Origin: a virus
Taxonomy: Duplodnaviria > Heunggongvirae > Uroviricota > Caudoviricetes
Virus record (IMG/VR): IMGVR_UViG_2695420412_000022
Coordinates: 1-11,394 of that record
Strand: one strand, 5' to 3'
DNA: 11,394 bases
The notes under the pieces are model-generated. The model had not been told where the DNA came from and searched no databases. It was given only the letters and a program-made list of their open reading frames with translations. Position 1 is the stretch's first letter, and each line of letters opens with the position of its first letter. This document shows positions 4,901-8,677 of this stretch, in pieces. The position numbers and the translations under genes were made by a program.

Positions 4901-5794
4901 TGAACCTGCCGCAGCTGAGGCGCTCTGTCCCGCTGCTGTTTCAGAAGACTTAGCGTTCGTCTCGGACGTTTTTGCCGCCTTCGCGGAATTTCCTGCCGCC
5001 GTTGCCGAGGAAGCTGCACTACTGGCACTTGATGATGCATTCGTTTCTGAAGATTTCGCTGCCTCTTTTGAGGCCGCCGCACCCCGTGCCGAGGTGGCAG
5101 CTTCTGACGCCTTCGTGGTCGCTGTGGATGCAGAAGTGGCTGCCGATTTTTGTGATGCTGCGGCATTCGTTTCTGACGTTTTCGCGGCACTGGCGCTGGT
5201 AGCTGCCGCGCTTTTTGATGACTCTGCAGCAGCAGCACTTTTTGCTGCTTCACGGGCCTTTGTCGATGCCGTTCCTGCGCTGGAAGACGCTGACTGAGCC
5301 GAGGACGCGGCCTGTCCGGCTGACGTGTTGGCGGCACGTGCTGAGGCTGCAGCATCGGTTGCATGAGTTGCCGCCTCGCTGGCTGATGCACTGGCATCGC
5401 TGGCTGATTTTTTCGCGGCTGCCGTATTCTGTGCAACCGCGGAGGCGTTACGTGACACCTCTTCCACCATCTGCTCAAAGCGGCGCAGTGCCTCCGGTCG
5501 GACATCATCCTCCGTCATGGCACCGAGAAAATCATTCAGCGTACCTGGTCTGGAACCTTCATAGACGGTAATGGTCCCGGCATGTGAAGGCGGAAAACCT
5601 TCAACCAGCAGGGTGACGCTGTACTGACCATGCTCAACATCCATGCTGTAACGTCCGGCTTCATCCGGATTTTCAGAGGCCACCGTGTTCACCACCACCG
5701 TGCTGCTGGTTCGTCTGGCCTTCAGCACAATGGTGCAGTTCTGTACTGATTTTCCTGTGCCATCTTTAAGCACGCCAGAAATTTTTACTGTCAT
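1919..5794 (-). CDS. stf: side tail fibre protein Stf, long form (1291 aa)
   Basis: The N-terminal ~115 aa ([26 protein letters not shown]...) resemble lambda Stf. They are followed by a long Ala/Ser/Thr-rich tract with recurring KTSETNA motifs, four ~28-aa [22 protein letters not shown] repeats, two copies of a PWPSD...GQTFDK...YPKL...PDMRGW module, and a His-rich HxH C-terminus (GAHTHS, GAHAHT, GSHGHT). The frame reads through the 10-N gap. Confidence 0.9.
3315..3324. other. assembly gap (10 N) inside stf
   Basis: A run of n in the sequence, directly beside the first PDMRGW module. Confidence 0.99.
4400..5446 (-). repeat. low-complexity Ala/Ser/Thr-rich coding repeat region of stf (approximate bounds)
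   Basis: The translation is dominated by A, S, T and K with recurring SETNA motifs. GCN-rich codons produce long spurious ORFs in other frames on both strands. Confidence 0.7.
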
Positions 5795-5808
5795 ACTTTT
5801 CCACCAAT

Positions 5809-5840
5809 AAAAAAAGCCCGCAGCAGTGACGCCACGGGCT
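5809..5840 (-). terminator. candidate intrinsic terminator after lom copy 2 (weak)
   Basis: On the minus strand: a GCCCG...CGGGC stem with a 14-nt loop followed by a 7-T run, just upstream of the stf ribosome-binding site and ATG. Confidence 0.35.
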
Positions 5841-5945
5841 TCAGGACAGTGTAACTTTACGTTTCCTCAAACGCAGTTCACCCCATAAGGTGGATGAACC
5901 TGCGTATCATAACAATATTTACAGAAGATAAATCGGCGTCTGTTG

Positions 5946-6545
5946 TCAGAAACGGTATCCGATACCAACAATAAATGCATCCGTTCGCCAGTCGCCACTA
6001 CCGGAACCTTCATAAGCAAGGTCAATGGTCACGGATTCGGTCGGATTAAACTGCACGCCAGCCCCCCACGCCAGAGACGTGTTGCTGTGGCGACCGTCAT
6101 CACTTCCGGTCAGCACGTCGTGCGTTTTCCCCTTGTTGTCAATTACGCGGAGATAATCCCCGGAGAAAGTCGACACACGGCTGTAAGCCACACCCACCAT
6201 CGCATACGCGCTGAACCATTCATTCACGCGTACAGACGGCCCCGCCATCACGCTGAACCAGCGGTTACGCACGGAATCTTCATGCCAGCGGGTATCGCTG
6301 TAGCGCGTTTTTTGCTCATCCTCAGCATTGGCATAACTGAAGGACGTAATCAGCCCCAGCGCGTCCGTAAACTCATAACGGTATTTCACGTTAATCCCGT
6401 TCAGATCATCACTACCGGGAACGTTCGTCGAGGCATGGAGATACCCCGCGCTCAGCGTGGACTGATGTTCTGCTGCACTCGCTGGCGTAGCAGCGGCGAC
6501 CTGCCAGACTACTGCGGACAAAATAACAGCACATAATTTACGCAT
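5946..6545 (-). CDS. lom: Lom/Ail-family outer membrane protein, divergent copy (199 aa)
   Basis: Full-length beta-barrel protein with a signal peptide and the conserved Lom core (GINVKYRYEFTD, RWHEDSVRNRWFSVMAGPSVRVNE, GAGVQFNPTESV). A GAGG ribosome-binding site precedes the ATG. It differs from copy 1 mainly in the signal peptide and the SYANAEDEQKT segment. Confidence 0.9.
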   Translation of the reverse strand: MRKLCAVILSAVVWQVAAATPASAAEHQSTLSAGYLHASTNVPGSDDLNGINVKYRYEFTDALGLITSFSYANAEDEQKTRYSDTRWHEDSVRNRWFSVMAGPSVRVNEWFSAYAMVGVAYSRVSTFSGDYLRVIDNKGKTHDVLTGSDDGRHSNTSLAWGAGVQFNPTESVTIDLAYEGSGSGDWRTDAFIVGIGYRF

Positions 6546-6569
6546 AATTACCTCTCGCTTTTCTGCAAT

Positions 6570-6593
6570 AAAAAAGGCGCCATTTCTGGCGCC
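6570..6593 (-). terminator. candidate intrinsic terminator between the J 3' fragment and lom copy 2
   Basis: Minus strand GGCGCC-AGAAAT-GGCGCC hairpin followed by TTTTTT. Confidence 0.45.
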
Positions 6594-6612
6594 CGTATCT
6601 GGGTTATAAAAT

Positions 6613-7144
6613 TCAGCTAATCGTGATGCCTGCAGTGGCTTTCTTCATCACCACAACCAGCAAATCGCTGATACTTGCTGTGGGATACCAGTTATTTACC
6701 AGCCATGCTGACACCGAAAACTCCAGTGTCATGTGACCGTGACCGGCAGGCATATCAATAACACCACTGTAAATCAACGTATTATCCAGCGCGGTACGGT
6801 TATAAATTTCAGCACCGTTTTTCCGTACTATCAGGCGGCATGACGAATAAATATCGTTATTCTCCCGCTCATGTTTAGCGCCGCTGAATGCCACCGCCGG
6901 AATAACAATCTGCCGGTCAAACGGCTGATCGTCATAAACCCTGACGGTGATGGTCCCTGATGGCCACCGTTCCGGTGCACGGGAGTCCCGGGGGAAAGCT
7001 TTGCCCACTGTTTTAACGAGATCGCCTTCAATCTGGTTGGCGGACAATTTTCCCAGAACCCGACAGTTCTCGTTAATCGTGACGTTGTTGAGCGTCCCGG
7101 AGTTCGCATTCACGTTACCGCTGATATCGGCATTTTTCGCCGTC
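6613..7144 (-). pseudogene. J C-terminal fragment (last ~177 codons), duplicated, with no start codon of its own
   Basis: Nucleotide sequence identical to the J 3' end at 8146..8677. The upstream side is joined at 7145 (an N) to a stf 5' fragment in a different frame. Confidence 0.8.
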
Positions 7145-7145
7145 N

Positions 7146-7414
7146 AGAAAATCATTCAGCGTACCGGGTCGGGAATCTTCATACACGGTGATGGTCCCGG
7201 CATGTGACGGCGGGAATCCTTCCACCAACAGAATAACGCTGTACTGACCGTACTCAACGTCCATGCTGTAACGCCCGGCTTCATCCGGATTTTCTGAGGC
7301 CAGCGTGTTCACCACCACCGTGGTGCTGTTACGTTTTGCTTTCAGCTGGATTGTGCAGTTCTGTACCGGTTTTCCTGTGCCGTCTTTCAGTACACCTGAA
7401 ATCTTTACTGCCAT
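7146..7414 (-). pseudogene. stf 5' fragment (codons 1-89, [26 protein letters not shown]...LNDF), truncated at the joint with the J fragment
   Basis: About 85-88% identical to the 5' end of the full stf and closer to lambda Stf as recalled. The frame runs into J-derived sequence out of frame and stops at 7115. Confidence 0.8.
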
Positions 7415-7425
7415 ATTCACCCCAC

Positions 7426-7452
7426 AAAAAAGCCCGCCTGAACCGGCGGGCT
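7426..7452 (-). terminator. candidate intrinsic terminator after lom copy 1
   Basis: Minus strand AGCCCGCC-GGTTCA-GGCGGGCT hairpin (8-bp GC-rich stem) followed by TTTTTT. Confidence 0.55.
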
Positions 7453-7478
7453 GTCATAACACTGTGTTACCTGGCTAA

Positions 7479-8078
7479 TCAGAATTTATAACCGACACCC
7501 ACGATGAAACCGTCAGTGCGCCAGTCGCCACTGCCGGAGCCTTCATAAGCAATATCAATGGCCACGGATTCGGTCGGGTTAAACTGCACGCCAGCCCCCC
7601 ACGCCAGAGACGTGTTGCTGTGGCGACCGTCATCACTTCCGGTCAGCACATCGTGCGTTTTCCCCTTGTTGTCAGTTACGCGGAGATAATCCCCGAAGAA
7701 AGTCGACACACGGCTGTAAGCCACACCCGCCATCGCATACACGCTGAACAATTCATTCACGCGCACAGACGGCCCCGCCATCACGCTGAACCAGCGGTTA
7801 CGCACGGAATCTTCATGCCAGCGGGTATCGCTGTAACGAGTCAGCTGGCGATTCCTGTCTCCTGCATAGCTGAATGACGTCACCAGCCCCAGCGTGTCCG
7901 TGAATTCATAACGGTATTTCACGTTAATCCCGTTAAGATTATCGCTACCGGGAGCGTTCGTCCGGGCATGAAGATACCCCGCGCTCAGCGTGGCCTGCTG
8001 CTCAGATGCCCATGCAGGCGCACCGGATACGGACAGACAGATGGCTGCGGACAAAATGGCTGCACAAACTTTACGCAT
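7479..8078 (-). CDS. lom: Lom/Ail-family outer membrane protein, lambda-like copy (199 aa)
   Basis: MRKVCAAILSAAICLSVSGAPAWASEQQATLSAGYLHARTNAPGSDNLNGINVKYRYEFTD... is near-identical to lambda Lom as recalled. A GAGG ribosome-binding site precedes the ATG. Confidence 0.92.
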   Translation of the reverse strand: MRKVCAAILSAAICLSVSGAPAWASEQQATLSAGYLHARTNAPGSDNLNGINVKYRYEFTDTLGLVTSFSYAGDRNRQLTRYSDTRWHEDSVRNRWFSVMAGPSVRVNELFSVYAMAGVAYSRVSTFFGDYLRVTDNKGKTHDVLTGSDDGRHSNTSLAWGAGVQFNPTESVAIDIAYEGSGSGDWRTDGFIVGVGYKF

Positions 8079-8677
8079 AATTACCTCTCGCTTTTCTGCA
8101 ATAAAAAAGGCACCATTTCTGGCGCCCGTATCTGGGTTATAAAACTCAGCTAATCGTGATGCCTGCAGTGGCTTTCTTCATCACCACAACCAGCAAATCG
8201 CTGATACTTGCTGTGGGATACCAGTTATTTACCAGCCATGCTGACACCGAAAACTCCAGTGTCATGTGACCGTGACCGGCAGGCATATCAATAACACCAC
8301 TGTAAATCAACGTATTATCCAGCGCGGTACGGTTATAAATTTCAGCACCGTTTTTCCGTACTATCAGGCGGCATGACGAATAAATATCGTTATTCTCCCG
8401 CTCATGTTTAGCGCCGCTGAATGCCACCGCCGGAATAACAATCTGCCGGTCAAACGGCTGATCGTCATAAACCCTGACGGTGATGGTCCCTGATGGCCAC
8501 CGTTCCGGTGCACGGGAGTCCCGGGGGAAAGCTTTGCCCACTGTTTTAACGAGATCGCCTTCAATCTGGTTGGCGGACAATTTTCCCAGAACCCGACAGT
8601 TCTCGTTAATCGTGACGTTGTTGAGCGTCCCGGAGTTCGCATTCACGTTACCGCTGATATCGGCATTTTTCGCCGTC
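8074..8677. repeat. copy 1 of the duplicated lom-start / spacer / J 3' segment (see 6541..7144)
   Basis: Visual alignment, as for 6541..7144. Confidence 0.9.
8103..8126 (-). terminator. candidate intrinsic terminator between J and lom copy 1
   Basis: Minus strand GGCGCC-AGAAAT-GGTGCC hairpin (one G-U pair) followed by TTTTTT. Confidence 0.45.

Follow-up and report, generated by a model that had tools for sequence, protein, structure and literature searches.

The tandem duplication of a J-lom-stf unit that appears in the window, by which we mean the whole 11,394-bp stretch of DNA analyzed, is very probably a false duplication made by scaffolding. As judged from comparison with natural loci of the same type, the window would interleave two alternative versions (A and B) of one lambdoid J-lom-stf region. 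An earlier note on this DNA had offered two readings, an assembly chimera and a mosaic tandem duplication; the former is strongly supported by the results below, while the latter is not supported.

Contigs and genes of the window

In a script scan for non-ACGT positions, we identified one single N at position 7145, the only single N in the window, and a run of 10 Ns at 3315-3324, within the open reading frame 1919-5794 (stf). The window consists of three contigs, in the following called the left (1-3314), the middle (3325-7144) and the right contig (7146-11394). The middle segment bounded by the two N sites is 3,820 bp long and has homologous overlaps of 849 bp with the left and 1533 bp with the right contig, and both N sites coincide with the ends of these overlaps, to the base. 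The first positions directly after the 10 Ns (3325-3451) are 78% identical to 2476-2602. The 10-N gap, which was missed in the earlier note, marks the other end of the putatively misplaced middle contig. The genes and fragments, with their Pfam assignments, are listed below in their order along the window, where A-type and B-type refer to the two versions.

612-1280, plus strand: class I SAM-dependent methyltransferase, carried as cargo downstream of tfa (Pfam Methyltransf_12/23/25; annotated in the related loci L001 and L002)
1335-1919, minus strand: tfa, tail fibre assembly (Pfam Caudo_TAP, E = 1.9e-44; annotated so in L001 and L002)
1919-3314, minus strand: 3' part of stf, left contig (Pfam Gp34_trimer, truncated to positions 41-115, gp37_C, Collar and Phage_fiber)
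3315-3324: 10-N scaffold gap between the middle and the left contig (flanks never adjacent in 5,426 finished genomes)
3325-5794, minus strand: A-type stf, 5' 2,470 nt (Pfam phage_tail_N, Gp34_trimer and Collar positions 1-54 of 57)
5946-6545, minus strand: lom2, A-type Ail/Lom gene (Pfam Ail_Lom, E = 2.2e-123)
6613-7144, minus strand: 3' end of J (177 codons and the stop codon), with which the A-type middle contig ends (532 bp; duplicates 8146-8677)
7145: single N where the right contig abuts the middle contig (joint without a match in all collections searched)
7146-7414, minus strand: B-type 5' fragment of stf (codons 1-89 and 2 further nt), with which the right contig ends (Pfam phage_tail_N, truncated to positions 1-90 of 134)
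7479-8078, minus strand: lom1, B-type Ail/Lom outer-membrane beta-barrel gene (Pfam Ail_Lom, full length, E = 1.1e-116)
8146-11394, minus strand: J, tail tip attachment and host specificity, right contig (Pfam FNIII-A_GpJ, Phage-tail_3, Ig_J, Ig_J_second, Phage_Tail_Tip and Ig_GpJ_C)

The Pfam domains scored above the curated cut-offs (Ail_Lom with 388 and 410 bits), which places the genes in the lambda-type J, Lom, Stf and Tfa families. The gene identities proposed in the earlier note are borne out by Ig_GpJ_C for J, by Ail_Lom, found twice, for lom and by phage_tail_N for stf. The 5' end of J, about 231 bp, lies outside the window edge, and the right-contig J, which is common to both versions, shows 8 mismatches in 3,249 bp to the J gene of the finished genome NZ_AP022049. 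What had been described as a full stf is not intact, as the open reading frame 1919-5794 spans the 10-N gap and is a composite of two contigs read through it. The order of Pfam domains is duplicated across this gap, with Gp34_trimer and a truncated Collar on one side and a truncated Gp34_trimer, gp37_C and Collar on the other, and the A-type fragment breaks off within Collar where the contig ends. Within the left-contig stf, 2476-3314 is of the B type and, at an offset of 849, has its homologue from 3325 onward, and 1919 to about 2442 is common to both versions.

The sequence features on which the duplication had been proposed were all present. The J 3' segments 6613-7144 and 8146-8677 (offset 1533) are identical at 532 of 532 positions, with the last mismatch at 6612 and the identity ending exactly at the N. 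Because it stops at the contig end, the 532 bp give the length of J at the end of the middle contig and do not measure the repeat. The two lom genes (5946-6545 and 7479-8078) share 85.7% of their nucleotides and 164 of 199 residues, and the two copies of the stf 5' end (5526-5794 and 7146-7414, offset 1620) share 85.9% of their nucleotides and 79 of 89 amino acids. One duplication event would be expected to leave uniform divergence, and the 100% found in the J 3' segments stands against 85.7% in lom and 85.9% in the stf 5' ends. The joint at 7145 is out of frame, the translation of the stf fragment not continuing in the J frame (TAKNADISG...), and its joint base is an N, where a genuine tandem duplication would have a fully sequenced, contiguous joint.

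Comparison with finished genomes

When 2476-3324 and 7145-8677 were deleted from the window, the remaining 9,012 bp aligned without gaps to L001, a locus of the finished Escherichia coli genome NZ_AP022049 (L001 positions 3526-12537), with 27 mismatches and 99.70% identity. L001 is an ordinary J-lom-stf-tfa prophage locus, so that removal of one copy leaves a structure known from finished genomes, as a false duplication would predict. Past the end of the A contig, L001 continues as window 8678 onward, not as 7146 onward, and subtracting 849 bp from the 3,876 bp of stf gives 3,027 bp, the exact length of stf in L001. The A-type part of stf (3325-5794) is 99.87% identical to L001 6001-8470, and lom2 also falls in a 99.87% match to L001. 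Taken alone, the middle contig has matches of 99.8-99.9% in many finished genomes, where it forms a normal stf-lom-J locus.

A second natural variant, the B-like locus L002, is colinear with the outer contigs (7146-11394 corresponding to L002 6001-10249 and 1-3169 to 938-4100), and about 1.7-1.9 kb of stf is missing between the two contigs. The stf 5' fragment 7146-7414 is colinear with the 5' end of stfR in L002, with 2 mismatches. At its other end, stf (2450-3314) is matched at 100% by stf in NZ_CP024131, among others; the stf genes with this identity (L004-L006) have a 5' end and lom that are 95% identical to 7146-8229, and an interval of 1,746 bp separates their matches to window 2450-3314 and 7146-8229. 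The closest finished-genome match to lom1 is 97.3%, and version B is a reconstruction by analogy because no finished genome matches the right contig above 97.8%. A lom1-specific 50-mer matched two IMG/VR UViGs (L007 and L008), in loci 81-84% identical with many gaps, and was not found in GTDB representative genomes or JGI metagenomes.

The 7145 joint did not occur contiguously in any of the 5,426 finished E. coli genomes. It was also absent from 50,697 phage records, among which no record with two copies was found, and had no match in GTDB representatives, IMG/VR or JGI metagenomes. A 121-bp query across the joint was covered to at least 80% at one finished-genome place only, in NZ_CP024232, and this was rejected as the same joint, being a J-stf deletion in normal gene order. 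For the joint at 3315-3324, no place with at least 80% query coverage was identified in the 5,426 genomes. Both novel joints are absent from these independent finished sequences, as would be expected of a false duplication. Masking by the data provider was rejected as the source of the Ns because no finished genome has the flanks of either N site next to each other.

Origin of the apparent duplication

Based on these comparisons, version B would run from the right contig (J, lom1 and stf codons 1-89) through about 1.7-1.9 kb of unassembled stf to the left contig (stf 3' end, tfa and methyltransferase). Version A would be represented by the middle contig (the J 3' 532 bp, lom2 and the stf 5' 2.47 kb), which in real genomes is continued upstream by the same J gene and downstream by the same stf 3'/tfa sequence. 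A scaffolder very probably inserted this contig where version B has its gap and, meeting no sequence overlap at either end, abutted it with 1 N and 10 Ns. This would account for the tandem duplication and the two gene fragments at 7145, all of them false, and for a stf falsely lengthened to 1,291 aa. We infer, rather than observe, the misjoin, the scaffolder as its agent and the kind of scaffolder. By the convention of SSPACE and ABySS, a single n denotes a predicted overlap that was not found. At least one reference-guided scaffolder abuts contigs that overlap on the reference end-to-end if their ends are too dissimilar (PMC4177539), and single-N insertions have been called 'indicative of construction anomalies' (PMC5902842). 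False duplications have gaps between their copies as a primary mark (PMC9516828), and by this criterion, which we adopted from the latter study, Ns lie exactly between the copies both at 7145 and at 3315-3324.

The N at 7145, flagged in the earlier note as a possible sign of an artefact, coincides with the end of a homologous overlap and is the mark of two abutted contig ends, not a biological joint. The same note had a chimera joined through the identical J 3' segment; instead, a stf 5' contig end abuts a J 3' contig end. In a check of the contig ends for branch points, the last 20 nt of the right contig were identical to 5526-5545, and the stf end of the middle (A) contig lay 33 nt inside the zone where A and B diverge. 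The middle contig carries 532 bp of shared J, not the k-1 bases expected of a clean de Bruijn branch point. These contig ends, like the limit of 97.8% on finished-genome matches to the right contig, weigh against the scaffolding reading.

Material from which such a misassembly could arise is common. The median E. coli genome has J 3'/stf 5' sequence at 3 places, and finished genomes with the middle-contig type can carry a second lambdoid tail module with exact repeats of 0.4-1.2 kb. The finished strain 203740 has an A-type prophage and, at a distance of more than 1 Mb, a further J-lom-stf-tfa module, and the two share exact repeats of 1,022, 728, 1,202 and 595 bp.

As to the source of the two versions, we tentatively consider that they may be allelic forms of one ompW-site prophage from two E. 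coli strains in one sample (a mixed culture, contamination or a metagenome bin), the assembler having formed a bubble and the scaffolder having linearised both branches. The A relative L001 and the B relative L002 are located at the same chromosomal site, next to yciE/ompW, and share the methyltransferase/tfa flank, and the left 2.4 kb of the window matches both about equally. This flank is in one contig with the B-specific stf 3' segment, and in the A-type loci that we inspected, L001 and L010, it is joined to the A type. However, paralogous modules with long exact repeats are common in single chromosomes and explain the data equally well, so the versions may just as well be two prophages in one genome.

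A real partial tandem duplication, in which stf codon 89 of one lambdoid module became fused to J (-532 bp) of a different one by illegitimate recombination, is very improbable. It could have arisen, for example, from tandem prophages at one att site with an internal deletion, or by unequal exchange between co-resident phages. Its outcome, a chromosomal J-lom1-stf'-'J-lom2-stf with two lom alleles, a stf'/'J fusion scar and the Ns as low-quality calls, is an equally slight prospect. The mosaic identity (100% in the J 3' segment, about 86% in lom and the stf 5' end) fits two different parental modules, and J-stf-joining deletions occur in finished genomes, for example NZ_CP024232, though in normal gene order there. 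However, the sole single N would then sit exactly at the joint by coincidence (about 1 in 11,394), and the second N-gap, which bounds the same 3,820-bp segment on its other side and has the same overlap pattern, would be left unexplained. The joint is also lacking from all 5,426 finished genomes and from the phage, IMG/VR, metagenome and GTDB sequences, and the sequence is demonstrably an unfinished scaffold.

Taken at face value, the scaffold would add a second lom, the pseudogene fragments stf' and 'J, and a 1,291-aa side tail fibre in which Gp34_trimer and Collar domains are duplicated, all of them false. Such artefacts could pass for prophage tail-module innovation or host-range evolution, and our result is mainly a caution. 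With the three contigs recognized, the false genes and fragments vanish, and the window is left with two versions of an ordinary lambdoid J-lom-stf-tfa module.

Relation to known systems

NZ_CP024232 (E. coli O6:H16 2014EL-1346-6) contains a genuine J-stf rearrangement that resembles the window in that a truncated J abuts a 5'-truncated stf. It differs in being a normal-order deletion (J then stf) that removed lom, in finished sequence with no N, whereas the joint in the window has the reverse order (stf then J) and would need a duplication. The canonical J-lom-stf-tfa module is known from phage lambda, Stx phages and ompW-site E. coli prophages, and each version, once disentangled, would be an ordinary single copy of it. 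Matches of about 94-95% come from phage records, for example VT1-Sakai and vB_EcoS-640R1. One version is 99.7% colinear with NZ_AP022049, and the window departs from the canonical module in scaffold order alone and in nothing biological.

The closest likeness is to the false (heterotype-like) duplications described by Ko et al. (2022, Genome Biol 23:205, PMC9516828), in which, as here, two diverged versions stand as adjacent scaffold contigs with a gap between them. Those cases likewise include false gene gains and gene fragments. Read depth and k-mer copy number serve as further diagnostic criteria for them, the depth over the copies of a false duplication being expected at about half the usual value, with read pairs across the joint discordant or absent. 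The published cases concern the haplotypes of diploid vertebrates, whereas in the bacterial case of the window the versions would be either paralogous modules of prophages or strain variants.

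Duplicated segments and contig boundaries

The two copies of the J 3' end (6613-7144 and 8146-8677, offset 1533) were identical at 532 of 532 positions, in agreement with the complete identity over 532 bp described in the earlier note, and this identity is bounded by a mismatch at 6612 on one side and precisely by an N at 7145, the base already placed at the novel joint, on the other. The adjacent genes had been reported as less alike (~85-90%), as was confirmed: DNA identity is 85.7% between the two lom genes (5946-6545 and 7479-8078), which have 164 of 199 residues in common, and 85.9% between the stf 5' ends (5526-5794 and 7146-7414, offset 1620), which agree at 79 of 89 amino acids. 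At 7145, where stf codon 89 abuts the J 3' end, the stf-side translation differs from the J frame (TAKNADISG...), and the joint is thus out of frame, as also stated in that note. Gene identities were backed by Pfam matches to multiple J domains, two Ail_Lom domains, phage_tail_N, Caudo_TAP, and a methyltransferase. The spacers between lom and stf are unequal (5795-5945, 151 bp; 7415-7478, 64 bp), and both hold a GC-rich hairpin beside an A/T run (AAAAAGCCCGC...GCGGGCT-like) that is probably the lom terminator. Within stf, a degenerate 33-nt motif occurs six times between 4547 and 5188; the spacings (147, 102, 150, 84, and 126) are all multiples of 3, which suggests a repeated peptide motif of the fibre shaft.

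A script identified exactly two non-ACGT sites in the window, the single N at 7145 and ten Ns at 3315-3324. The ORF at 1919-5794 (1,291 aa), previously taken as a complete stf, runs across the ten Ns, which had been overlooked. This makes the window a three-contig scaffold:

1-3314, left contig
3325-7144, middle contig
7146-11394, right contig

The start of the middle contig (3325-3451) matches 2476-2602 of the left contig at 78%, so that in homologous coordinates the overlap is 849 bp for these two contigs, and it is 1533 bp for the middle and right ones. In Pfam searches, stf on the middle contig has Gp34_trimer followed by a truncated Collar at its end, and on the left contig it restarts with a truncated Gp34_trimer, after which come gp37_C and Collar. 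Two contigs contribute to the composite 1,291-aa product, and their homologous overlap duplicates the Gp34_trimer/Collar order. The contigs do not end at clean k-mer branch points.

Counterparts of the two versions in finished genomes

All 3,820 bp of the middle contig (version A) were matched at 99.8-99.9% in many complete E. coli chromosomes, in each case within a normal single-copy stf-lom-J locus. In one of these, NZ_AP022049 (locus L001), the prophage adjoins yciE/ompW. When 2476-3324 and 7145-8677 were removed from the window, the remaining 9,012 bp aligned to L001 without gaps and with 27 mismatches (99.70%). The L001 bases that follow the J end of the middle contig are identical to the window from 8678 onward, not from 7146 onward, and stf shortens from 3,876 by 849 to 3,027 bp, exactly the length of the L001 stf.

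For the outer contigs (version B), a different natural form of the locus provides the colinear counterpart. In NZ_CP180600 (locus L002), at the same chromosomal site as L001, window positions 7146-11394 correspond to 6001-10249 and 1-3169 to 938-4100. Several finished genomes have stf genes that match the left-contig-specific stf segment (2450-3314) at 100%; in these genomes the stf 5' end and lom match 7146-8229 at 95%, and 1,746 bp separate the two matches.

Just past the 3' end of tfa (1335-1919), and on the other strand, is a class I SAM-dependent methyltransferase gene (612-1280, plus strand), flanked by tfa and by tfa/DUF4376 remnants; the finished ompW-site prophages L001, L002, and L010 (the last from NZ_CP025913) have this cargo gene annotated in the same place. 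A direct repeat of 227 bp (236-462 and 1286-1511, ~88% identity) corresponds to the 3' portion of tfa and to a truncated copy of that gene at 286-555 (Caudo_TAP profile positions 75-130). Finished genomes carry the same remnant, annotated as a pseudogene, and it is therefore a natural relic rather than an assembly effect.

Origin of the two versions

E. coli genomes contain J 3'/stf 5' sequence at a median of 3 places each, and at 22 places at most. In strain 203740 (NZ_CP025913, finished), an A-type prophage occupies the ompW site (L010) and a second J-lom-stf-tfa module (L009) lies more than 1 Mb away, with exact repeats of 1,022, 728, 1,202, 595, 468, and 395 bp between them. These repeats, up to 1.2 kb, span J 3', lom, and stf, and both prophages are lambdoid; the pair provides a natural template for misassembly as well as for genuine homologous exchange between tail modules. 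Repeats of this size disrupt short-read assemblies and mislead scaffolders. L001 and L002, the closest finished relatives of A and B, share the chromosomal site and the same methyltransferase/tfa flank, so that A and B could represent one locus in different strains of a mixed sample. Whether the versions came from such a sample or from two prophages in one genome, the tandem arrangement would be spurious.

In the simplest account, version B would run from the right contig through an unassembled stf interior of ~1.7-1.9 kb to the left contig, and the version-A contig would have been inserted into this gap. We infer that this contig, paralogous or allelic to its neighbors, was put there by a scaffolder that abutted the ends with Ns, which agrees with published descriptions: gaps separating the two copies are a primary hallmark of false duplications (PMC9516828), single-N insertions have been regarded as construction anomalies (PMC5902842), and at least one reference-guided scaffolder sets reference-overlapping contigs end-to-end if their ends are dissimilar (PMC4177539).

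Searches for the two joints

Neither a 601-bp nor a 121-bp query across the 7145 joint was matched contiguously in any of 5,426 complete E. coli genomes, and their halves were each found separately at 100% identity in thousands of E. coli genomes. The joint was also absent from GTDB representative genomes, IMG/VR, and JGI metagenomes in exact-pattern scans that accepted any base, or a stretch of 0-10 bases, in place of the N. For the ten-N gap, no place in complete E. coli genomes covered at least 80% of a 210-bp query, the halves of which each had 100% matches in hundreds of genomes. In all 44 well-covered phage records (50,697 searched), a 3.4-kb query collapsed onto ~1.7-1.8 kb, corresponding to one copy.

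The same mosaic identity pattern would result if two co-resident lambdoid modules had undergone real illegitimate recombination. This reading also requires that the window's only single N fell on the joint by chance (~1 in 11,394), that chance likewise put another N gap, with a matching overlap signature, at the other end of the same segment, and that the structure is one found in none of the finished genomes; we consider it highly improbable. Of the recombination and the assembly artefact proposed earlier, the artefact is favored by what was directly observed, namely the three-contig structure, the homologous-coordinate overlaps, and the lack of either joint in the other sequences searched, and the mosaic tandem duplication is very probably not a real feature. 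Underneath lies an ordinary tail module of lambdoid type (J-lom-stf-tfa), of which two versions are present. Scaffolding produced the stf' and 'J fragments, the tandem second lom, and the 1,291-aa stf, and recognizing this keeps these false genes from biological interpretation.

Only one place, in NZ_CP024232, covered at least 80% of the 121-bp query, and it was rejected as the same joint. At 3001-4149 of this locus (L003; O6:H16, finished), an internal J fragment is fused to a 5'-truncated stf, with lom deleted. This finished genome shows that genuine J-stf rearrangements exist; the L003 deletion keeps the normal gene order, whereas the 7145 joint has a different structure.
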